Assembly: GCA_035285325.1 (NCBI GenBank)
Contig: JAYKJB010000120.1
Location: forward strand, 16,429 to 80,428
From: Candidatus Sericytochromatia bacterium
GTDB lineage: Bacteria > Cyanobacteriota > Sericytochromatia > S15B-MN24 > JAQBPE01
Length of the DNA: 64,000 nucleotides
Direction of reading: 5' to 3'
Shown piece by piece: positions 25,640 to 53,162 of this stretch; position 1 is the first letter of the stretch, and the number at the start of each line of letters is the position of its first letter. The notes under the pieces were generated by a model. It ran no database searches, was not told where the DNA came from, and saw only the letters and a program-made list of their open reading frames with translations. Both the position numbers and the translations under genes were made by a program.

Positions 25640-25646
25640 TCGGAGG

Positions 25647-25718
25647 AGCGGGAAAAGGGATTCGAACCCTCGACCCCCACCTTGGCAAGGTGGTGTTCTA
25701 CCACTGAACTATTCCCGC
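25647..25718 (-). tRNA. tRNA-Gly (GCC), 3' CCA not encoded
   Basis: GCGGGAA acceptor stem, D-loop AGTGGTA, anticodon loop TTGCCAA, T-loop TTCGAAT; followed by CCT rather than CCA. Confidence 0.98.
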
Positions 25719-42030: not shown

Positions 42031-42783
42031 TCAGGACGGGAGGTCCGAGCGAACCGAGCTGGAAACCTCCTGCAGGAGGTAGTGCGGCAACACGTAATCG
42101 ACGAACAGGGGAACCAGATGGGGGTCGTACATCACCCCACTGAAGCGGATCAGTTCAGCCGACACCTCGTCGGGAATCAGCGCCGGCCGATAGGGACGGT
42201 CTTGCAACATGGCTTCCGCACTGTCGGCAATGCGCAGAATTCGGGCGGGCAGCGGAATTTCCTCGCCGGCCAGGCCATCGGGATAACCCAGGCCATCCCA
42301 GCGTTCGTGCGAGGCGCGCACCCAACCGGCCAGCTCCGGATCCTTCGTCAATTCCAGGGCCTTGGCGGCCCCGCGAACGGGATGACGCCAGATCGGGCCC
42401 ATGTCGGCCTGAGGCAGCACGGACGAGCGCGCCAGCAACTCCGCAGGCACCTCCATCATGCCGATGTCATGCAACAAACCGGCCTGGTGAATCCGCGCGC
42501 GAAGCTCTGCCGGCAGCCCAGCGGCGCCAGCCAGCGCGGACGCCAGCCGCGCCACGCGCCCGGCGTGACCAGGCACGTAGCGCTCGTGCGCGTCGGACTG
42601 CGCGATCAGGTCCGCCATGTCGATCGCGCGGTGGGGCTTGGTGCCCCCCTTGCGCGGGGCCGGGGCCGCGCGAGGCGCCTCACCCGGGGCCTGGGCCGGC
42701 AACAGGTAATAGACCAGCACCAGGATGGCACCGAACAGGAACAGGTAGCCGAGCAGCTGCACGAAATCTGACAGGCTGGTCAC
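42031..42783 (-). CDS. HD-GYP domain phosphodiesterase with an N-terminal TM helix
   Basis: H..RVA, LLHDIG, HP..GA, HERWDG.GYPDGL, ARIL..AD...AM...RPYR. Confidence 0.92.
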   Translation of the reverse strand: MTSLSDFVQLLGYLFLFGAILVLVYYLLPAQAPGEAPRAAPAPRKGGTKPHRAIDMADLIAQSDAHERYVPGHAGRVARLASALAGAAGLPAELRARIHQAGLLHDIGMMEVPAELLARSSVLPQADMGPIWRHPVRGAAKALELTKDPELAGWVRASHERWDGLGYPDGLAGEEIPLPARILRIADSAEAMLQDRPYRPALIPDEVSAELIRFSGVMYDPHLVPLFVDYVLPHYLLQEVSSSVRSDLPS

Positions 42784-42796
42784 GGATGCCTCGCTG

Positions 42797-42832
42797 GAAA
42801 ACGCGGCCCGGACCCCACGAGGGGCCCGGGCC
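42797..42832 (-). terminator. Probable intrinsic terminator after hppA
   Basis: GGCCCGG-CCCC / GGGG-CCGGGCC stem followed on the minus strand by GCGTTTT. Confidence 0.55.
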
Positions 42833-42896
42833 GGCGTGTGACGGGAAGCGGATGGGCTGTCTCCCCGAACGGAGAGACGGCCCGGTCAGCCGGGAC

Positions 42897-45203
42897 TCAG
42901 TGCGAGGCCTCGGGCGACGGCGCAGCCGGAGAGGCCGCCCCTTCCGCAGGCGCCGACGTTTCAGCCGAGGCGGCCGGCGAAGCGGGGGCCTCGGAGGGCG
43001 CTGCCGCCGGAGCTTCCGCCGAGGCAGGAGCGACCGGCGACTCGATCACGGCGGCCGGAGACTCGACGGGAGCCGCGGAGGCCTCCGGCGACGCTGCCGG
43101 GCTCACGATGGCGTGAGGCGCCGCCAGGGCAGGCCCGATCGACTTGGGCGCCGTGTGAATCGCGAGCATGTAGGGGATGACCAGCAGGGCCACGATGTTC
43201 AGGATCTTGATCATCGGGTTCAAGGAAGGACCCGCGGTGTCCTTGAAGGGGTCACCCACGGTGTCGCCGACCACGGCGGCGGCGTGCGCCGGCGTGCCCT
43301 TGGCACCCTTGATCTCGATCAGCTTCTTACCGTTGTCCCACGCGGCACCGCCGGTGGTCATCAGCAGGGCCAGCATCAGACCGGTGATGATGGCACCGAC
43401 CAGCAGGCCGCCCAGTGCGATGGGGCCGAGCACCAGGCCCACGACCAGCGGAATCGCCACCGCCAGGGCACCCGGCAGGAACATTTCCTTGATCGCGGCT
43501 TCGGTGACGATCGCGACGCAGCGGTCGTACTGAGGCTTGTTCTTGCCTTCGAGGATGCCGAGTTCCCGGAACTGACGGCGCACCTCGGTGATGACCGACT
43601 GCGCGGCCTTCGACACGGCCGTCATGAAGATGGAGCCGAAGTAGAAGGGCAGCACGCCGCCGATGAACAGACCCGCGATCACCTGAGGATCGGAGAGGCT
43701 GAAGGTGATGAATTCAGCCGAACCGCCGGCCTTTTCACTCATGAACTTGTGGAGGTCTTGGGTGTAAGAGGCGAACAGCACCAGGGCAGCCAGACCGGCG
43801 GAGCCGATGGCGTAACCCTTGGTCACGGCCTTGGTCGTGTTGCCGACGGCGTCGAGCGCGTCGGTGATCTGACGGACCTCGTGGGGGAGTTCGCTCATCT
43901 CGGCGATGCCGCCCGCGTTGTCGGTGATGGGACCGAACGAGTCGATCGCAACCACCATGCCGGCGGTCGAGAGCATCGCCACGGCCGCCACCGCGATGGC
44001 GTAGAGGCCTTCGTTGTAGTTTCCGGCGAAGCCGCCGGCCGCGTAGAACGACCCGATGATGGCCGCAACGATCACCAGCACGGGAGCCAGCGTCGACTCC
44101 ATGCCGACCGCGAGACCCGCGATGATGTTGGTGGCCGCACCGGTTTCGGAGGCCTTGGCGACTTCCTGAACCGGCCGGTATTCCGTGGCCGTGTAGTACT
44201 CGGTGATGACGGTGATGATGACCATGACGGCCAGACCGATCAGCGAGGCCCACAGGTACTGATACGGATTGGTGGGGAACATCTTGAAGGTCAGCCAGAC
44301 GAAGCCGACCAGGGCCACCAGGGCCGTGATGCCGGTGCCCGCGTAGAGGGCGTGCATGATGTTGTTGTTGCGGCCCAGCTTGACGCTGAAGGTGCCGACG
44401 ATCGAGGCCAGGATGGCGATGGCGCCCAGACCGATCGGGTAGAGCACGAACGCTTCGTTGGTCGGGAAGAAGAGGTGGCCGAGCAGCATCGCGGCGATCA
44501 GCGTCACGACGTAGGTCTCGAACAGGTCGGCGCCCATGCCGGCACAGTCACCGACGTTATCGCCCACGTTGTCGGCGATGACGGCCGGGTTACGAGGGTC
44601 GTCCTCAGGGATGCCGGCTTCGACCTTACCCACCAGGTCAGCGCCGACGTCGGCGGCCTTGGTGAAGATGCCGCCGCCCACGCGGGCGAACAGCGAGATC
44701 AGCGAGGCACCGAAGCCCATGCCGATGATCGATTCGACGCTGTGCGTCACGCCATAAAAGGCGGCCACGCCCAGCAAGCCCAGACCCGCGACCGCCAAAC
44801 CCGTCACGGCACCGCCCCGGAAGGCGACCTGCAAGGCAGGCGCAAGGCCCTTCTCAGCCGCGGCGGCCGTGCGCACGTTGGAGCGAACGGAAATGTTCAT
44901 TCCGACGTAACCAGCGGCGGCCGAGAACGCGGCGCCGATGGCGAAGCCGATGGCAGAGGTCCAGCCCAGCGGGGCCTTGCCGGCGAGGCCGATCAGCACG
45001 AACAGCACCGCGCCGACGATGGCAACCCACTTGTACTGGGTGTTGAGGTAGGCCGAGGCCCCCTCCTGGATGGCGGAGGCGATCTCCTTCATCCGCGCGT
45101 TGCCGTCAGGCAAGCGCAAAATCCCCATCGCGAGATAGGCGCTGGTGGCCAGCGTCAGGATAGCGGCGACGACGCTACCCCAAATGATGAAATTTGGATC
45201 CAT
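42897..45203 (-). CDS. hppA: Membrane-bound H+-translocating pyrophosphatase, K+-independent type
   Basis: [40 protein letters not shown] (Lys form), [11 protein letters not shown]. Confidence 0.97.
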
Positions 45204-45393
45204 GATGACGATGTACCTACTCCTTGCGTTGCAGAGGCGTGTGGGTTCGGTGCAAGTCCAAGCAACAACCAAACCGACGAACGTTGCAAAAATGAAACCG
45301 TATTTTACCTGCATTTAATACTGCGGGCAACCAAGCCCGTCACGACGGGATCGCCGGCGCTTCCGCGAGCAGGCCTCAAGAGCGACCGGGACC

Positions 45394-46995
45394 TCAGCAG
45401 GCTGGCGAGACGGGCACGGTCTCCTCGGTGTCATCCGCCACGTGACTGCAATTACGTCCCGACGCCTTGGAGCGGTAGAGGGCCCGATCGGCCGCTTCCA
45501 GCAAGGCCGTGGCCGTGCGGGCGTGGCGCGGCCAGGTCGCCACGCCGACGCTCACCGTCACGTGCAAGGCCTCCCCGCCGGGGCCTGACACGCGACACCC
45601 TGCGATCGCCTCCCGGACCCGCTCGGCCATGGCCAGGGCTCCCGACATGTCGGTTTCCGGCATGAGGACCAGCAACTCTTCCCCCCCGTAGCGCCCCGGA
45701 ACGTCCACATCCCGCACGCTGGCGCGGATCGTGCGGGCCACCGCCTTCAAGACCTCGTCCCCCGTCTGGTGGCCATAGGTGTCGTTGAAGCGCTTGAAAT
45801 GGTCGATGTCCATGATCAGCACCGACAGGGGGGTCCCGTAGCGCTCGGCACGCCGGAGTTCCTCGGCGAGGCGATGTTCGAAGTGGCGCCGGATGTAGAG
45901 GCGGGTCAGGCCGTCGGTGGTGGCCAGCTCGTACAGGCGTGCGTTCTCGATCGCGGTGGCCGCCAGGCTCGCCAGATTGGCCAGCAGCGGCACATCGTCC
46001 TCCGGGTCGAACGGCGAGACGGCGTGACGGGATTCCTTGTCGAAGACCGCAATCACCCCGACCTGGCGTTCCTGATAGGCGATCGCCGAAACCAGCCCCA
46101 CGCGCGCGCCCAGTTCCGCGGGCAGCCCCTCCGACGAGAGGGTACAGGGGCCCGTGGCGCCCAGCACGGGAGCCAGCCAGGCGGCGCCGACCGGCCAGAC
46201 GAAGGGGGTTTCCCGCTCTTCGAAGCCAAATACCGCCGCGGACTCGAGCCACTCTCCCGACTCATCTTTGAGCAGCAGGAAGCCCTTGCGGGCATCCAGC
46301 AACTCCACGGTCCGCAGCATCAGTTCATCCGTGATCCGCAAGCGGTCGAGCGTCGATGTGATGGCCCGGCTGATGTCATACAGCTGTTCGAGCTGCCGCA
46401 CCTTGAACCCGAGCTGCCGGTTGGCCCGCGTCAGGCTGGTGGTGAGCTGATGGTTGTGCAAGGCCACAGCCAGCTGGCGTCCGATCAGAATCAGCAGGTC
46501 CGCTTCGGTGCGCCCCAGCGGACGCTGATCAGGGGTATCCCCCACCATCAGCAGACCAAGGAAATGGCGATTGACCGCCAGCGGCAGCCAGACCGTCGCC
46601 GGTAGCAACGCCAGGATGGTCTCGTTCGCCGCCCGAAACTCATCCAGCAGGTCGTGGCGACGCGTGTGCGCGATCAGCGTGCCGGCCTCATCCAAAAACC
46701 ACCGACGCACGTCGGGTGAGACCGCCAGCAGGCCGGTCGGCTCGTCGGCCAGCACCACCGGCTCAAGCTGCTGTCGCTCCGGCTGGTACAGCAACAGGCT
46801 GGCCCGGCCAATGCCCAAGGCCCCAGTCGCCATCCGCACGATCGCCTGGATACTCGAGCGCGGATTGGGGTTGGTCGTGAGCTGCTCGGCCATCTCTTCG
46901 AGGGCCGCAAACAGATAAAGCAAGCGTTCCAGCGACTGTCCGCCGGGCGATGCGTCCGGCACGATGCGAGTGGCAGCTCCGTCGCGTTGGTCCAC
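45394..46995 (-). CDS. GAF-GAF-GGDEF diguanylate cyclase
   Basis: DGLT, DIDHFK.FND.YGH..GD, RYGGEEL A-site with RDVD I-site; two GAF-like segments. Confidence 0.93.
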   Translation of the reverse strand: MDQRDGAATRIVPDASPGGQSLERLLYLFAALEEMAEQLTTNPNPRSSIQAIVRMATGALGIGRASLLLYQPERQQLEPVVLADEPTGLLAVSPDVRRWFLDEAGTLIAHTRRHDLLDEFRAANETILALLPATVWLPLAVNRHFLGLLMVGDTPDQRPLGRTEADLLILIGRQLAVALHNHQLTTSLTRANRQLGFKVRQLEQLYDISRAITSTLDRLRITDELMLRTVELLDARKGFLLLKDESGEWLESAAVFGFEERETPFVWPVGAAWLAPVLGATGPCTLSSEGLPAELGARVGLVSAIAYQERQVGVIAVFDKESRHAVSPFDPEDDVPLLANLASLAATAIENARLYELATTDGLTRLYIRRHFEHRLAEELRRAERYGTPLSVLIMDIDHFKRFNDTYGHQTGDEVLKAVARTIRASVRDVDVPGRYGGEELLVLMPETDMSGALAMAERVREAIAGCRVSGPGGEALHVTVSVGVATWPRHARTATALLEAADRALYRSKASGRNCSHVADDTEETVPVSPAC

Positions 46996-47008
46996 CTCTC
47001 AGGCTCCC

Positions 47009-47371
47009 TCAGGCCCTTGCCAGCAACGCCTGGACGGCCTCAGGCTCGGTTTCGAAAACGGCCGCGTACTGGGCCAAGCCCATGATCGTGAAGGTCTTTT
47101 GAATCGTGCGCGTCAGATGACAGAAGGCCAGCGCGCCGTGCGACTCCTGCATCTTCTCGATCACCTCGATCAGAATGGAGATCCCGATGGAGTTGATCAC
47201 GGTGCTCTTTTCCAGGTTGATCACGAGCCGCGTGTACCCCTCGGCCATCAGCAAATTGGCCGCCTCACCGAGGCGTTCACCCCCCACATTGTTGATGTAC
47301 CCCTCGGTGGCGAGCACCGCGTAGCGGCCTTGAGGGTCCTTACGGACAGCGAGGTTGAACGGTCCCGTCAC
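47009..47371 (-). CDS. STAS-domain anti-anti-sigma factor (RsbV/SpoIIAA-like)
   Basis: LVINL....VINSIGISIL (conserved Ser), F.IMGL. Confidence 0.9.
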   Translation of the reverse strand: MTGPFNLAVRKDPQGRYAVLATEGYINNVGGERLGEAANLLMAEGYTRLVINLEKSTVINSIGISILIEVIEKMQESHGALAFCHLTRTIQKTFTIMGLAQYAAVFETEPEAVQALLARA

Positions 47372-47811
47372 GGCTGGCCCTCCTCGATTCGTTTCTTGGT
47401 CATGGTGATCCGCGTGCCCTCGGGTCCGCTCTCGATCGCCACCTCATCCATCAAGGCCTGCATGAGCATCAGCCCCCAGCCGCGCTTGTTCTCGGTTCCT
47501 GACAACTTCTGCTGAAGGTCGGGATGAGGCACGGCATTCGGCTGAAAGCCACGGCCATGGTCCTGGATCACCACGCGGACCTCGTCGGCCTCGAGCACAA
47601 ACCGGATGTAGACGTGACCATCCTGGCTGGTGCTGTGTTCGAACGCGTTGATGCACGCCTCGATCAGGGCGTGTTTGACCTCGTCGATCTGGTCCGACGT
47701 GAAGGCCATGAAACGCAACACCGCCTCGGCCGTGTGCGTGGCCGCCACTTCCATGTCCGGCACGATCGGGATTTTGAGCGAGACTTCCCGCGGGGAGTCC
47801 GGTGGTCGCAA
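47368..47811 (-). CDS. Anti-sigma factor / Ser kinase (RsbW-like)
   Basis: L.EACINAFEH, IQDHG.GF, RGWGL.LM..LMDEV; TTG 47811 after GAGGAGG; 4-nt overlap with the STAS gene. Confidence 0.9.
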   Translation of the reverse strand: MRPPDSPREVSLKIPIVPDMEVAATHTAEAVLRFMAFTSDQIDEVKHALIEACINAFEHSTSQDGHVYIRFVLEADEVRVVIQDHGRGFQPNAVPHPDLQQKLSGTENKRGWGLMLMQALMDEVAIESGPEGTRITMTKKRIEEGQP

Positions 47812-47927
47812 GCGCCGCCTCCTCGACCAAGGGTGCCCGAGCTGCCGGGGAACCCCGGACGGGAAACGGTCGAACAACGGCCTTATACCTGTGTACCGCG
47901 GCGAGCAAACGCCCCGGGAGACCGCCC

Positions 47928-48827
47928 TCACTCGACCTGAACCAGCCGGGTGTAGATCTTGTGCCCGAGCAAGCTCTCCTGGCCGCCGCGGCGCCAAAGT
48001 TTAGGCACCACCAGCACATGCGTGTAGGTGCCGGGCGCGGAGGGCGCCGCCCGGTTCACATTCAGCCCACGCTTGGGGACCAGCGTGAAACGAAGGGAAC
48101 GATACACGTCTTCCGCGCCAGTCTTCGAGATCACGGTGGCCAGCGGCACCAGCGAATAGGCGTATTCCGTGCGCGCCCCGGACATGCTGTCATCCCCGAA
48201 ATACATCCGCAGCTTGTAGGGTTGCTTGGCACTCAGCAGAACCGGCAGACTGGTGAAGCCCATGACCCCGAAGGGCTGGCCGATGTCGATGAAACTGTCG
48301 TTCCAGGCCACCTGGAGCGTATCGGCCCGCCAGCCGTCGGCGGCCCGTCGATACATCGCAGTGACCTCGCCCACCTCGGAATAGGTGGCCGGGAGACCTG
48401 AACCATCGTAATTCGCGGTGGTGCCGGTGAACTCGGCCACGGTGGTGACATTGGCCTCTCCATCGCCCATCTCGGACACCGTGACGGCGCGATAGCGCAT
48501 GCGGAGGTCTCCGAAGGAACGCTTCAATTCGCGATTGATTTCCACCAGACGGGCCCGCTCGACCTGGATTCCGTTGTAGGTGACCTGCGGGGACAGGTCG
48601 TGCAAGTAACCATCGAAATCACCGCGATTGAAAGCCTTGAGGCTGAGCTCCAGGTGACTACGCAAGGCCTGTTCCGCCCCCGACGGGCCGACCTCCGCGG
48701 GCGTGGCCACCGACTGCGCTTCCGCGGAAAATCCCCAGGCCCTCGCCTCGAGGCGTCCACCCAGAGCCAGCGCGAGGCTGAGGCCCGTGGCCAGCACGGC
48801 CGAACGGAAAAGGATTGCAGGTCTCAT
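47928..48827 (-). CDS. Exported protein with an NTF2/SnoaL-like domain
   Basis: Signal peptide; AFNRGDFDGYLHDLSPQVTY; ATGA overlap with the upstream GH57 gene. Confidence 0.7.
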   Translation of the reverse strand: MRPAILFRSAVLATGLSLALALGGRLEARAWGFSAEAQSVATPAEVGPSGAEQALRSHLELSLKAFNRGDFDGYLHDLSPQVTYNGIQVERARLVEINRELKRSFGDLRMRYRAVTVSEMGDGEANVTTVAEFTGTTANYDGSGLPATYSEVGEVTAMYRRAADGWRADTLQVAWNDSFIDIGQPFGVMGFTSLPVLLSAKQPYKLRMYFGDDSMSGARTEYAYSLVPLATVISKTGAEDVYRSLRFTLVPKRGLNVNRAAPSAPGTYTHVLVVPKLWRRGGQESLLGHKIYTRLVQVE

Positions 48828-51043
48828 GGGCTGGCCACCTGTTGTTTGATATCCATCACCAAGCGGCACCGCCACTGCCCATTTTCACTGAGGGACAGAC
48901 GCCAGTTCGGGAACAGAACGGAGGACTGATAGACACGCTCGAAACCCCATTCGCTGCGTGAGACGGTCTCGACCGGAAAGCGCCAGAGCGAACCGGCCCT
49001 GTTCCAGGCGAGATGGGTATCCACGCCCAGGGATTCATCGCGCAGACCGATCTCGGAGATGTGCTCTTCCTCGCACAGGGCCGCCGGGTGGGACGATTCC
49101 AGATGCCGACCTGTCGCGCTGTAGTAGCCGTGCCCTTGGCCCGCCCCGGCCCGCATGTTGAGGTTGAATTCCACGCCGAACCAGAGTTCGACGGGCCGCT
49201 CCCACAGGTTGGTGACCTCGTAGTCGACCGTGAAGCCATCGCCGTCGCGCGGAATCTGAATCGACTTGGCCACCCGCACCGGCCAGAATTCGGAACCGAC
49301 CCAGACATGACCGTCGCGTACCAGGTCCAACACCACGGCGTCGGGCAGTTCGCGGGTGTGCAGGTGGTATGGCTGGTTGATGAAGTCGCCCTGCTCGCCG
49401 TAAGACACGTTGTAAAAGGTCTCGAGTTGCGTGTCCGGGTGCACGAAATGGTCCAGCAGCGACATGCGTCGGTACCAGTCGTAATGCAAGAAACGTTCCA
49501 GGCCACTTTCCTTGACCACCGCCCGCTCTCCAAGAGCGGCCAAGGGCAAGCGCTCCACGTCCCGGGCCGGCACCGCCCCCGCGATCTTGGGATGGTAGGA
49601 CTCCGGGCGACGCGCCAAAGTGTCGAGCAAGTTCAGCCGGGCCGACTTGAGGTCGTGCTCGAACAGGCCGCCGCCATAGGCGGGAGAGAAATACAGATTC
49701 TGATGTCGGGTCGAGACCAGGGCCTCGGTGGCCCCATCGCAATCAAAGTCGACGATTTCCAGCTCACAGAAGGGCCCCGGCCCACGCACCAGCCTGTCAC
49801 AGAGGGCCTCGGCCTCGATCAAGGCGGCGTAGTTGGCCCCGCGCAGGTGATTCAGGTAGATGCCACCGAACACGCCGTGCCAGTAAGCATCATGGCTCTG
49901 GCCCCGCCAGAGGGCTTCCTGGGCTCGGGCCAGCAGATCGTCGGTCGGGTCGGCCAGCGTGGAACCACCGGCGTCGGAGGCGTTGGCCACCACCCGGTCA
50001 GGCTCCCCCACCCGGCGCAAGGCTTGCACCCGGGCCGCCACGCGAAGCATTTTCTTGTGCATGTTGTTCGACTCGGGATAGCGCACCAGGAAATGGCGCC
50101 AGTACCCCCCCTGCAGAAACTCCGCATACCGGCTCGGCACCTGGCTTCGGGCTTCTTCAAAAAGTGCCGCCTGTTCCGGGGGCAGCGACCAGGTCTGCAT
50201 TTCGGCGAAGGAGCCGACCGGCAGGTAGACGCGCCCCCACGGCCGAAATCGCTCACGATAGTCACTCAGTGTGACGCAAGCGACCCAATCGCGATGGGTC
50301 TCGAGCAACTGGAAGAAACGTTCCAGCCACCCCTGCACATAGACGGCCTCATAAGTCCCGGGCCAACCGCCCATCTTGGCGCCGTCGTCCACATGCACCA
50401 GGATTCGCGAGCCGTCAGCCGTCGCGTGCTGGCGCAGGTGCTCGATCACGCGCTCAGGCGACTCGAAGGGAATCAGCGCGCGCAGTTCGCGGGAGTTGGG
50501 GAACAGCGCCAGGCTCTCGCCCAGTTCCTCGGTCTGGTAGTAGCCGAGCAGGTCCTCATCGCGCAGACCGACCATGCGGAACGGCTGGTCATCCAGCACA
50601 CTGTAACGTAAACCCGCCTGGACGATCGGCTTGACCAGATGAGGCTCCCACACGCGACCCGCCAGGGCCATCCCCACCGGGTCGAAGCCCACCATCCCTC
50701 GCACCGCATCCGATAGGCGTCGCATCTGACCGAGCTGGTCGTCGGGCGGGATCATGGCCATCATCGGCTCATAAAAGGCCCCCCCGAGCAATTCCACCTG
50801 CCCACGCCCGACCATGACCTTGAGCCGCTGCACGAACTCGGGGTGGTGGGTCGTCAACCAGTTCAGCAGGTGCCCGTCATAATGCAGGGTGAAGCGAATG
50901 GCCTCGTGACGTTCCAGAACGTCCAGAAACGGCAAATAGGAATGCTGGTAGGCATCCTCTACCACATAATCCCAGTTGCCGACGGGCTGGTGGTTGTAGA
51001 GGCCCAGGGCGAGATGAATCTTGGTCTGGTCAGCGAGCAGCAT
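48824..51043 (-). CDS. GH57 4-alpha-glucanotransferase/AmyA homolog (DUF1925/DUF1926), catalytic nucleophile missing
   Basis: NHQP, GGAFYEP, DDG.K.G.WPGTY, WRGQSHDAYWHGVFGGIYL.HLR, C-terminal ETVS.SE.GFE..YQ. CSR3 reads GMALAGRVW instead of G.WL.ERVW. Confidence 0.92.
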   Translation of the reverse strand: MLLADQTKIHLALGLYNHQPVGNWDYVVEDAYQHSYLPFLDVLERHEAIRFTLHYDGHLLNWLTTHHPEFVQRLKVMVGRGQVELLGGAFYEPMMAMIPPDDQLGQMRRLSDAVRGMVGFDPVGMALAGRVWEPHLVKPIVQAGLRYSVLDDQPFRMVGLRDEDLLGYYQTEELGESLALFPNSRELRALIPFESPERVIEHLRQHATADGSRILVHVDDGAKMGGWPGTYEAVYVQGWLERFFQLLETHRDWVACVTLSDYRERFRPWGRVYLPVGSFAEMQTWSLPPEQAALFEEARSQVPSRYAEFLQGGYWRHFLVRYPESNNMHKKMLRVAARVQALRRVGEPDRVVANASDAGGSTLADPTDDLLARAQEALWRGQSHDAYWHGVFGGIYLNHLRGANYAALIEAEALCDRLVRGPGPFCELEIVDFDCDGATEALVSTRHQNLYFSPAYGGGLFEHDLKSARLNLLDTLARRPESYHPKIAGAVPARDVERLPLAALGERAVVKESGLERFLHYDWYRRMSLLDHFVHPDTQLETFYNVSYGEQGDFINQPYHLHTRELPDAVVLDLVRDGHVWVGSEFWPVRVAKSIQIPRDGDGFTVDYEVTNLWERPVELWFGVEFNLNMRAGAGQGHGYYSATGRHLESSHPAALCEEEHISEIGLRDESLGVDTHLAWNRAGSLWRFPVETVSRSEWGFERVYQSSVLFPNWRLSLSENGQWRCRLVMDIKQQVASP

Positions 51044-51113
51044 GGCACACTTGAAAGCAAGGGCTCATCCGGAGAGCCGTGGCGTTCAGTGTAGCGGATG
51101 ACCAGACCGAACG

Positions 51114-53162
51114 CTATCGGGTGAGACCGACGCGCTCCTGGCGCGACGCAAACAGGCGGTAATCGATGTCAGGGAACAGGTTGTCGATGTCCTCGCAGGC
51201 GGACACCAGCCCGTCCGTGACCTGATCCGCCATGAGGGCGTCCGCCAGCGCATCGAAGCGGGCCACGTGCTCGTTGAAGCGGTCGATGGCGTAGGTTCGA
51301 GCCTGACCGGTGGTCACGAGGAAGGGCCAATCACTGCCCTCCAGCAACAGCACCTCGCGGGCCGCCTGAGCGAGGGCCCGGGCATGAAAGGGGGAAGGGG
51401 GAACGGGATAGGTCCGCACGAGTTCCTCCATGCGCCGCTCACAGCGATGGATGATCGGCCACATCCACTCCACCTGGGGATTCATCCACACGTGATAGTG
51501 GCCCCCTGCCCCCCAGGTGCTCTCAGGCAACTGGAACGCGTGCGCGGGCGGGTTGCTCCGGTGCAGTTCACCCACGGTGATGGGGCGAATGCCGGGATGG
51601 AGGGCCATTTTACGCAACACGGCCTTGATCCAGTCGATGCCCTCGAACCACCAGTGACCGAACAGCTCAGTATCGAACGGCACCACCACGTGGCCCACCT
51701 CCCCGTTGGCGTCGTGATAGCCCTTGAGCATGTCGTGAATCAGGCCGACGTAATGGTCACTGTGTTCCGCCACCCGTTCAGCGGCGTGCTGAGGATCGTA
51801 GAAGGCCTTGTCCGCCAGATCGCAGCGCGCCCCCGTGATCCGCCAGTAACACATGCCACTGTTGCCGTCGCGCTTGTGAAACTCCCGGTAGCCCGGGTCC
51901 CCCGGGTAGCCCATATCGGCCGACCAGACCTGCCAGCCGGCCCGTTCATTGCGAGCATAGAAGGCCACCGGATGGTCAGGGAGCCAGTAGCCGTGGAACG
52001 TGTCCAGACCTGAGAGCGGGCGCTCGGGCATCTCCAGATATTCGATATTGCCGTAAAGGCCGATGTGGCGGCGATAACCGCTGGTTTTTCCGCCCACCAC
52101 CGCGTGGGCGTCGGTGAAGAAATAGGCCAGCCCGTGTTCAGCCAGGAATTGCTCGACGGGGGGACGGTAATCGCGCTCATCCTCATAGCCGGGACGGTAC
52201 GCGCATTCGGGCAGCCAGACGCCCAGTGGCGCCGCTCCGAAGTGGCGCTGATGGGTCTGCACCGCGGTGGCGAATTGCGCGTGCAGCGTGGAGTCACGGC
52301 TGAAGAGCGGACTGAAGCCGTGGGTGGCCGCGCAGGTGATCAGCTCGATTGCCCCGGCTTCCTGAAGGCGGCGGAAGGCGCCGAGGAGGTCCCCGTGATA
52401 GCGCTCGCGGAAGTCGCTCAGCCGTTCCCGGTACCAGTCCAGGTACCACTGCGACAGCTCGCGGCGTGGGTCGGCTTCCGCCGGCAGGTCGAGCGGTTCT
52501 TCCGGAATGTCTGCCAGAGTGGGTTCCAGACTCGCCTTCAGGGCCGCGGGAAGGGGCTCCGCCGTCTCCCGGGCGCCGGCCCGGGCCGCCGCCTCAGCGC
52601 CGGCCTGCTCGGCAGTCGCGACCAGGCGAACCAGCTTCGCCGGGCGCTCGAAAGTGAGGTGCTGCAGGGTGGCCAGCGGCAAACCGGCCACCAGGGTGCG
52701 CGCAAAGCGACGGGACTTCAGGCTGCGGAGAAGGGGCCCATGGTCGGCCGTGCCGGTCGCGTCGGCGATCGCCGCCTCCTGCTCGGCCAGCCAGGCCAGG
52801 CGCGCCTGCTCCAGCTTCTGGGCCCGACGCTCGCCCGCCCGCCAACGGGCCGACTCGAGCTCGCCCTCAGGGGAGTACCGCTGCACATCCCGCTCGATGC
52901 GGACCAGAATGTCCTCGACGTAGCGCTCGAAGCCTTGCTTGAGGTGCGCGTCCGCCAATTGCTCCGCCAGCACCGGCGTGATGCCGATCGTCAACTTCGG
53001 TGCGATGCCCTCGGCCAGCAGTTCATCCACGGCACGAAGCAGCGGCAGATAGGTCTCGGCCATGGCCTCGTAGAGGTTTTCCTCGCCGAACGGCCACATG
53101 CCGGCCTTGCGATAGTACGGCAGGTGACTGTGGAGAACCAGACTGAAGGTGCCGACGGCCAT
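51114..53162 (-). CDS. GH57 1,4-alpha-glucan branching enzyme (DUF1957) with a large insertion
   Basis: HSHLPY, ATHG, WLPECAY (Glu), PFDTELFGHWWFEG (Asp), STWG, RE.LLLEGSDWPFL. Confidence 0.95.
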   Translation of the reverse strand: MAVGTFSLVLHSHLPYYRKAGMWPFGEENLYEAMAETYLPLLRAVDELLAEGIAPKLTIGITPVLAEQLADAHLKQGFERYVEDILVRIERDVQRYSPEGELESARWRAGERRAQKLEQARLAWLAEQEAAIADATGTADHGPLLRSLKSRRFARTLVAGLPLATLQHLTFERPAKLVRLVATAEQAGAEAAARAGARETAEPLPAALKASLEPTLADIPEEPLDLPAEADPRRELSQWYLDWYRERLSDFRERYHGDLLGAFRRLQEAGAIELITCAATHGFSPLFSRDSTLHAQFATAVQTHQRHFGAAPLGVWLPECAYRPGYEDERDYRPPVEQFLAEHGLAYFFTDAHAVVGGKTSGYRRHIGLYGNIEYLEMPERPLSGLDTFHGYWLPDHPVAFYARNERAGWQVWSADMGYPGDPGYREFHKRDGNSGMCYWRITGARCDLADKAFYDPQHAAERVAEHSDHYVGLIHDMLKGYHDANGEVGHVVVPFDTELFGHWWFEGIDWIKAVLRKMALHPGIRPITVGELHRSNPPAHAFQLPESTWGAGGHYHVWMNPQVEWMWPIIHRCERRMEELVRTYPVPPSPFHARALAQAAREVLLLEGSDWPFLVTTGQARTYAIDRFNEHVARFDALADALMADQVTDGLVSACEDIDNLFPDIDYRLFASRQERVGLTR

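Follow-up and report, generated by a model that had tools for sequence, protein, structure and literature searches.

A Sericytochromatia clade of full-length GH57 4-alpha-glucanotransferase-like proteins that lacks the catalytic nucleophile and is encoded next to a GH57 branching enzyme

Catalytically dead homologues of glycoside hydrolases (GH) are established regulators of plant starch metabolism, and ISA2 with ISA1 is one such starch pseudo-enzyme pair. In another pair, the plant pseudo-enzyme beta-amylase9 (BAM9) binds and activates alpha-amylase3 (AMY3) (PMC12046210). In family GH57, '-like' groups have so far been catalogued in silico only. Among them is the bacterial '4AGT-like' group, whose nearest relatives are 4-alpha-glucanotransferases (4AGTs), in which one or both catalytic residues are substituted and to which no function has been assigned (Martinovicova & Janecek 2018, PMC6037648). 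Its 63 listed members stem almost all from Treponema, Spirochaeta and Sphaerochaeta, with single ones from Marinithermus, Fibrobacter and Ectothiorhodospira; they average about 620 amino acids (aa) in length, and most of their conserved sequence regions (CSRs) are degenerate (PMC6037648). The 4AGTs of Thermococcus litoralis (TLGT; structures 1K1W, 1K1X and 1K1Y), Pyrococcus furiosus (PfuAmyGT) and Pyrococcus sp. ST04 (PSGT) share one three-domain fold and CSR framework, and TLGT crystals hold maltose at a surface site on domains 2 and 3, which represents a non-catalytic glucan site in the family. Here we analyze AGTL, our working label for a 739-aa GH57 4-alpha-glucanotransferase-like protein without the catalytic nucleophile, which is encoded in a stretch of 64,000 nucleotides (nt) from a Candidatus Sericytochromatia bacterium (GenBank assembly GCA_035285325.1, contig JAYKJB010000120.1, positions 16,429 to 80,428; in the following the window). 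AGTL has the same fold and CSR framework as the solved 4AGTs and, being bacterial, closest to 4AGTs and substituted at a catalytic residue, it falls within the definition of the 4AGT-like group. An earlier sequence-only reading of this DNA had described it as a full-length GH57 pseudo-enzyme beside an active branching enzyme, and the non-catalytic GH57 proteins of which that reading was aware correspond to this group.

The AGTL coding sequence (CDS; 48824..51043 (-)) begins with ATG and is an intact, full-length open reading frame (ORF). TLGT is the best solved relative (1K1W; E=3e-129, 34% identity). Pfam matched PF03065, the GH57 catalytic domain, at E=4.8e-36, PF09095 over 284 of 284 positions and PF09094 in two partial stretches, the best covering positions 36-79 of 80, which is the domain set typical of archaeal-type 4AGTs; no NCBIfam model matched AGTL. 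We take PF09095 and PF09094 to be the former DUF1926 and DUF1925, respectively, and all three domains are covered by an AlphaFold2 model. This model, built from an alignment of 66 homologues, has a mean predicted local distance difference test score (pLDDT) of 94, and Foldseek superimposed it on 1K1X (1k1x_A) with a template modelling score (TM) of 0.95 and a root-mean-square deviation of 2.5 Å; hence, all three domains are predicted to be structurally intact. The alignment with TLGT and the secondary structure of the model place the catalytic (beta/alpha)7-barrel with CSR1-CSR4 at residues 8-290 (50174..51022 (-)), and Pfam and the model place the C-terminal beta-sandwich, with its full-length PF09095, at residues 426-739 (48827..49768 (-)). 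AGTL thus has the three-domain architecture of 4AGTs (EC 2.4.1.25), consisting of the barrel, the helical PF09094 and the beta-type PF09095 domains, and its membership in the GH57 fold is supported by PF03065, by the TM value and by CSR1-5, which can all be aligned to TLGT. AGTL differs from TLGT in being about 80 aa longer, with an extra loop modelled at low confidence at residues 349-359, and it comes from a bacterial lineage of metagenome-assembled genomes (MAGs) that is probably of mesophilic type, judging from GC content and sources, whereas TLGT comes from a hyperthermophilic archaeon. The specificity fingerprint of 4AGTs, a Lys at logo position 23 and a CSR5 ending in Y-W-H (PMC6037648), is found in AGTL as K223 (TLGT K217) and a CSR5 ending 'DAYWH'.

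The catalytic dyad of GH57, a Glu nucleophile in CSR3 and an Asp proton donor in CSR4, is incomplete in AGTL. In the TLGT alignment, the check proposed by the sequence-only reading, the position of the nucleophile (TLGT E123) is occupied by Gly129 (codon GGT, 50657..50659 (-)), and the invariant Trp of CSR3 (W120) is replaced by Ala126 (GCC, 50666..50668 (-)). Further replacements are Tyr16 for the His of CSR1 (H11; codon TAC, 50996..50998 (-)), which is common only to the window protein and its homologue P0002, and Ala222 for the Glu of CSR4 (E216; 50378..50380 (-)) within the sequence VDDGAKM at residues 218-224. All these substitutions, and the full length of 739 aa, were already given in the sequence-only reading and were found again. 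On the other side, AGTL keeps the acid/base Asp (D220, TLGT D214; 50384..50386 (-)), the +1/+2 Trp (W221/W219), F187 and D354 of the TLGT type, the last being D385 in CSR5 of AGTL. In PfuAmyGT, each of the exchanges E131A, D222A, E224A and D362A abolishes glucanotransferase activity without structural effect, and a constant offset of +8 would make these residues equivalent to E123, D214, E216 and D354 of TLGT. Two of the four acids required in PfuAmyGT are therefore missing in AGTL (G129 and A222) and two are retained (D220 and D385). Since Ala at either of the two Glu equivalents is sufficient to kill PfuAmyGT, a classical transferase activity of AGTL appears very unlikely, and AGTL is very probably not a conventional retaining transferase. 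It has to be considered, however, that the position equivalent to D354 is Cys (GQCNCPYWH) in 68 of the 104 bacterial Glu-type homologues compared but Asp in the archaeal enzymes; the archaeal rule of four acids is thus not universal, and what holds for the active site of the archaeal enzymes may not apply to the bacterial branch of the family, which is largely uncharacterized.

The loss of the nucleophile is not restricted to the window protein. Among the best 120 of 2,999 homologues, every sequence down to about 57% identity carries Gly, in one case Ala, at this position; P0039 and P0041 (48-50% identity to AGTL) also belong to the Gly/Ala type, and the remaining homologues have Glu with the exception of P0036. 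In a neighbour-joining tree, the 27 Gly/Ala protein clusters, which reach down to about 48% identity, form a single clade with a Glu-type sister clade, and comparison of these 27 clusters with 104 Glu-type sequences gave 26 Gly and 1 Ala at the nucleophile column of the clade versus Glu in 104 of 104 other homologues. Judging by source names and by its three closest genome loci, the Gly clade belongs to Candidatus Sericytochromatia, a non-photosynthetic class in the Cyanobacteriota/Melainabacteria group. When all columns conserved to at least 90% in the 104 Glu-type sequences were inspected, only the nucleophile was replaced by a different residue fixed throughout the clade; the other flagged columns 31, 395 and 504 show just variation among similar residues. 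The codons for Gly129 in orthologues include GGT, GGA, GGG and GGC, and Glu-type relatives use GAG or GAA. Together, the clade-wide fixation and the use of all four Gly codons suggest that the substitution is old and that Gly itself has been maintained. A recent loss in one allele, which was named in the sequence-only reading as the finding that would speak against it, is rejected by the spread of Gly/Ala over a monophyletic clade, and the close orthologues do not keep Glu. One argument of that reading did not hold: it had taken the changes at the nucleophile as multi-base changes and thus as evidence against an error, but GAG to GGG is one non-synonymous change and the T at the third position is synonymous; for the Trp codon the multi-base change is correct. 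It is consequently the orthologues, rather than how many bases differ, that argue against a sequencing error. A Glu-type paralogue in the same MAGs was not detected among the 80 best genome loci, in a pattern-based scan of incomplete MAGs that provides weak evidence.

A separate observation concerns P0036 (locus L089, 7001-9190), which lies inside the Glu-type sister clade and shows an independent change from Glu to Gly (GIWLAGQVWE), indicating that nucleophile-to-Gly substitution recurs in the family.

The ratio of non-synonymous to synonymous substitution rates (dN/dS), taken from the least saturated pair of orthologues (L002 versus L003, dS 0.76), is 0.113 for AGTL, lower than the values of the adjacent branching enzyme (0.160) and of cinA (0.194), and by this measure AGTL is under purifying selection. 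Both checks that had been proposed for the orthologues, conservation of the Glu-to-Gly exchange and dN/dS, are hence in favor of a pseudo-enzyme, as are the depth of the monophyletic clade without nucleophile and the mutagenesis of PfuAmyGT. A relaxation of the whole catalytic barrel was considered and rejected, because the ratio of catalytic to C-terminal divergence is alike in the Gly clade (0.925) and in the Glu-type sister clade (0.943). The order of changes can be read from 105 positions at which Glu-type proteins show a conservation of at least 97%. P0014 and P0016 differ from these positions only at the nucleophile, and the window AGTL has kept 98 of the 105 and changed seven (H16Y, W126A, E129G, E222A, F224M, Y279F and N384H). 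Six of the seven changes are situated within CSR1, 3, 4 or 5; the seventh, Y279F, may correspond to Y270 of PSGT at the +1 subsite if an unverified numbering offset is accepted. Codon 126 documents a stepwise path from TGG via TCG (Ser, in L002 and L003) to GCN (Ala, in the window and L001). The minimal change in P0014 and P0016 and the additional ones in the window protein indicate that the nucleophile was lost first and that residues of the -1 and +1 subsites followed later in the sub-lineage of the window. As an alternative, AGTL might be the product of a sequencing error, an allele inactivated recently or a pseudogene in decay. For this view one could cite that several conserved active-site residues are changed in one sequence; it is contradicted by the full-length frame, by the same substitutions in independent assemblies, by the four Gly codons, by the dN/dS of 0.11 and by the limitation of the changes to the active site, such that its probability is close to nil and we regard it as effectively refuted.

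Many functional residues of the cleft have been retained in the Gly clade. D220, H18, R130, W227, F193, D385, W388 and H389 occur in every clade sequence that covers the respective position (26-27 of 27), with the acid/base Asp D220 present in 27 of 27 members; W227 is the equivalent of W219, which is essential in PSGT, and F193 that of the Phe at the +3 subsite (TLGT F187). Position 189, the Tyr of the +2 subsite, was rejected as a second clade-wide loss, since the Glu-type sister clade already varies there. A replacement carboxylate conserved throughout the clade was searched for in the clade alignment, and none was found in the CSRs; the acidic residues that were gained (E290, E429, E565 and E659) are either common to the sister clade or located in other domains. 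Residues 58, 463, 603, 631, 659, 696 and 726 represent derived states that the Gly clade has nearly fixed and that differ from both the sister clade and the other homologues. According to the secondary-structure context in the AlphaFold2 model, H58 lies just after beta2, H463, placed between the conserved E462 and D464, belongs to the C-terminal domain together with R631, E/D659, R696 and C726, and G603 is another derived residue.

These patterns of conservation are relevant for the question whether AGTL is still an enzyme with a changed mechanism. The cavity left by the Glu-to-Gly exchange could accept phosphate, another anion or water, an idea that we consider distinctly unlikely; equally unlikely are the forms it could take, namely an inverting hydrolase, a phosphorylase or a natural glycosynthase-like transferase using a beta-configured donor. 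Engineered glycosynthases are retaining glycosidases in which the nucleophile is changed to Gly, Ala or Ser and which require activated donors, and both nucleophile-to-Gly glycosynthases and the anion rescue of mutants operate via an external nucleophile or donor in the cavity. In family GH97, where an alternative base is present, retaining members differ from inverting ones in the residue at the nucleophile position. AGTL resembles these cases in the kind of substitution and in the retention of the remaining site, but unlike them no alternative catalytic residue or donor has been identified. In favor of a changed mechanism one can name the constancy of Gly across saturated synonymous divergence (26 of 27, four codons), the acid/base Asp, H18, R130, D385 and W388/H389 in every covering sequence of the clade, a catalytic domain as constrained as that of the active sister clade, the basic clade-derived residues H58, H463, R631 and R696, and the independent Glu-to-Gly change in P0036. 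However, the window sub-lineage is also devoid of the W120, E216 and H11 equivalents, and E224A alone kills PfuAmyGT; no new conserved carboxylate appeared within the CSRs; and a small residue would be conserved just as well if the -1 subsite had to accommodate a glucan chain lying across it. To our knowledge, no natural GH57 protein with such a changed mechanism has been described. A mechanistic conversion of the whole clade, with phosphate (leading to beta-glucose-1-phosphate), another anion or water taking the place of the nucleophile, is very unlikely, though compatible with the strict upkeep of Gly, of the acid/base Asp and of the remaining pocket in deep members and with the newly fixed His/Arg residues, and for the window protein the extra losses in the pocket argue against it. 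If it were true, a retaining alpha-amylase family would have, in this clade, its first inverting, phosphorolytic or glycosynthase-like member of natural origin.

A possible context of a non-catalytic function is given by the neighboring gene. It encodes a GH57 1,4-alpha-glucan branching enzyme of 682 aa (51114..53162 (-)) with GH57 and BE_C domains in Pfam and matches in PDB to P. horikoshii GBE 5WU7 (E=3e-134) and to 3P0B; NCBIfam models for branching enzymes matched it below their cut-off. Its catalytic motifs WLPECAY and DTELFGHWW are intact in the window and in seven clade loci for which DNA was at hand, the P0023 contig offering no DNA for this check, so that the branching enzyme is apparently active, in accordance with the sequence-only reading. 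The AGTL gene follows after a spacer of 70 nt (51044..51113 (-)), the distance that had been reported before, and the pairing is conserved in the clade. In all 10 clade contexts examined, including the window, L001-L003 and the contigs of P0013, P0023, P0041, P0017 and P0025, the core order is GH57 branching enzyme, AGTL, an orphan of about 280-300 aa and a STAS antagonist; upp and cinA are located upstream of this core in nine of the ten, and L085 has a Pirin gene instead. The same adjacency of branching enzyme and transferase is found with Glu-type genes in the Sericytochromatia P0040 and P0035, in Vampirovibrionales L044 and in several loci of Margulisiibacteriota, Saganbacteria and Elusimicrobia. 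Since the Glu-type relatives share it, the pairing predates the loss of the nucleophile.

We favor the explanation that AGTL is a catalytically dead yet functional GH57 pseudo-enzyme that acts as a glucan-binding partner of the branching enzyme. An ancestor of the Gly clade would have possessed an active transferase gene directly downstream of the GH57 branching-enzyme gene. The nucleophile Glu would then have changed to Gly once and been kept so, purifying selection would have continued to act on the fold of three domains and on most of the cleft that binds sugar, and in the sub-lineage of the window the equivalents of W120, E216, H11, F218, Y272 and N353 at the -1 and +1 subsites may have drifted later on. 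Such an AGTL would not form the glycosyl-enzyme intermediate; it might bind alpha-1,4-glucan along the cleft, possibly also at a secondary surface site, without cutting it, and could work together with the co-oriented and probably co-transcribed branching enzyme, for instance if it held chains, presented them or anchored the enzyme on glycogen. The conserved cleft, the small residue where the chain would cross the -1 subsite and the maltose site on domains 2 and 3 of TLGT favor binding without cleavage, and, as an intact branching enzyme is invariably encoded next to AGTL, cooperation is the most economical hypothesis. The analysis shows the lost residues and their fixation throughout the clade, the purifying selection, the intact fold, the retained residues of the cleft and the conserved position next to an intact branching enzyme; glucan binding, the lack of residual catalysis and cooperation with the branching enzyme are properties that we infer for AGTL. 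Taken as a whole, the statement is put forward tentatively, with the doubts weighing somewhat heavier than the confidence; its specific part, in which AGTL binds glucan as a partner of the branching enzyme, is plausible but held with slightly less confidence. The more general proposal of the sequence-only reading, a glucan-binding scaffold or a regulator of glycogen synthesis, is plausible.

Several points weigh against this explanation. As the adjacency to the branching enzyme is ancestral, it may reflect inherited gene order and not a new partnership. The acid/base Asp, the residues of the -1 subsite and the Gly are well conserved in the deeper members of the clade, which may hint at an altered mechanism. 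The GH13 enzyme BmaN1 is active despite aberrant catalytic residues, though with its nucleophile intact. The gene string also holds the unrelated cinA, the exported orphan, rsbW/STAS and GGDEF genes, and the source organism is known from metagenomes only.

The downstream genes permit a different interpretation of AGTL. A co-directional string (42031-47997 (-)) encodes an RsbW-like anti-sigma kinase, whose true start is probably near 47784, a STAS antagonist, a GAF-GGDEF cyclase, an H+-pyrophosphatase (H+-PPase) and an HD_5 protein. In the clade contexts, the RsbW-like kinase was detected in 8 of 10 and the GAF-GGDEF cyclase in 6 of 10, plus a truncated downstream gene in L086; an H+-PPase and/or HD-domain gene comes next where the contig extends. 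The full RsbW-STAS-GGDEF string is found in the window, L001, L002, L083, L085 and L087, and in L003 and P0023 no RsbW-like or GGDEF gene was detected. Of the sister clade, four contexts were examined (those of three Glu-type proteins and of P0036), and none of them contained the orphan or the partner-switching genes: the Glu-type P0040 and P0035 are accompanied by genes of MalK-type ATP-binding cassette (ABC) systems, and the Glu-type P0031 and the independent Gly protein P0036 by GH38/M28/Lgt genes, in the case of P0036 a GH38 mannosidase, an M28 peptidase, AGT and Lgt but no branching enzyme. AGTL could hence be regarded not as a helper of the branching enzyme but as a glucan or maltodextrin sensor for a module of RsbW-like/STAS/GAF-GGDEF partner switching and cyclic di-GMP signaling, which we judge unlikely. 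Some part of the string from AGTL over the orphan, rsbW and STAS to GGDEF is indeed present in all 10 clade contexts and missing in the four of the sister clade. On the other hand, upp and cinA upstream are nearly as constant, so that the block is possibly inherited synteny in one lineage; the exported orphan and, given a start of rsbW near 47784, a gap of about 140 nt intervene between AGTL and rsbW; and no domain or motif joins AGTL to STAS or RsbW proteins, which leaves synteny as the sole basis.

The orphan itself (47928..48827 (-), 299 aa) starts with an ATG that overlaps the stop codon of AGTL (ATGA) and is the next gene after AGTL in all 10 clade contexts examined. It has an N-terminus resembling a signal peptide, an NTF2-like N-terminal half and a second alpha/beta domain; fold and profile searches returned nothing more specific for it than an NTF2-like fold and did not connect it with glucans. 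The family is essentially limited to the Gly clade (28 clusters among 5.8 billion proteins; 4 representatives among 1.84 billion). As the orphan is predicted to be exported, it is unlikely to form a complex with AGTL in the cytoplasm.

Returning to the pseudo-enzyme explanation, AGTL resembles BAM9 with AMY3 and ISA2 with ISA1 in being a GH homologue that has lost catalytic residues and continues to be selected, and in the model proposed here it would likewise act through another alpha-glucan enzyme; catalytic loss with continued purifying selection, as expected for pseudo-enzyme partners, was found for AGTL. The difference is that the plant proteins belong to GH14 and GH13, act in plastids and have experimentally shown interactions, whereas the partnership of AGTL would be deduced from gene order. 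Relative to the degenerate members of the 4AGT-like group, the Gly clade consists of longer proteins (694-774 aa) in which only the nucleophile is lost clade-wide. Sericytochromatia do not occur in the 63-member table of this group (PMC6037648), and the nesting of the Gly clade among Glu-type sequences in the tree suggests an origin independent of the published 4AGT-like proteins. The category of non-catalytic GH57 proteins is therefore already known, and the Sericytochromatia clade is an independent and unusually clean origin within it. The accessible portion of a 2024 review on prokaryotic alpha-glucan enzymes does not treat pseudo-enzymes as a topic and uses 'non-catalytic' twice, for binding sites and domains, and a search of the literature on glycogen in Sericytochromatia and on incomplete catalytic machinery in GH57 found no report of the Gly clade. 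The clade offers a clean test case, because members with a change at one position (P0014 and P0016), a fixed branching-enzyme partner and a graded erosion of the pocket make the function of a GH57 pseudo-enzyme directly testable. Furthermore, it is relevant to glycogen synthesis in those sister lineages of Cyanobacteria that do not carry out photosynthesis.

Some minor features of the locus should be mentioned. Apart from the branching enzyme, the window ORFs scanned with Pfam included no glycogen genes of the types glgA, glgC, glgP or malQ. Compared with solved GH57 branching enzymes, the neighbor of AGTL contains an insertion of about 125 aa rich in Ala, Glu and Arg (residues ~107-233, 52464-52844 (-)), which in clade orthologues ranges from absent (proteins of 551-580 aa) to about 210 aa (in a protein of 771 aa). 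Co-evolution of this insertion with the Glu-to-Gly exchange was rejected, since the branching enzymes of the Gly-type loci L086 and L087 lack it. The spacer upstream of AGTL includes a weak hairpin of 5 GC pairs followed by a T-poor tail (51062-51078 (-)), and a scan of the region for promoters and terminators gave hits at chance frequency, the spacer hairpin included. Opposite to AGTL an antisense ORF of 532 aa is open (49013-50611 (+)), and another of 959 aa lies opposite to the H+-PPase gene (42786-45665 (+)); with their translations rich in Arg, Gly and His, they look like artefacts of high GC content rather than genes. Finally, the GC content of the window steps from 0.58-0.63 (approximately 1-26000) to 0.65-0.69 (28000-64000) near its only tRNA gene, tRNA-Gly(GCC) (25645-25718 (-)). 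The lower-GC side carries nuo genes for complex I, a gene for an SLH-domain protein, an ORF resembling D12-type adenine methyltransferases and several large ORFs without Pfam match, and it may represent an island or a mosaic region.

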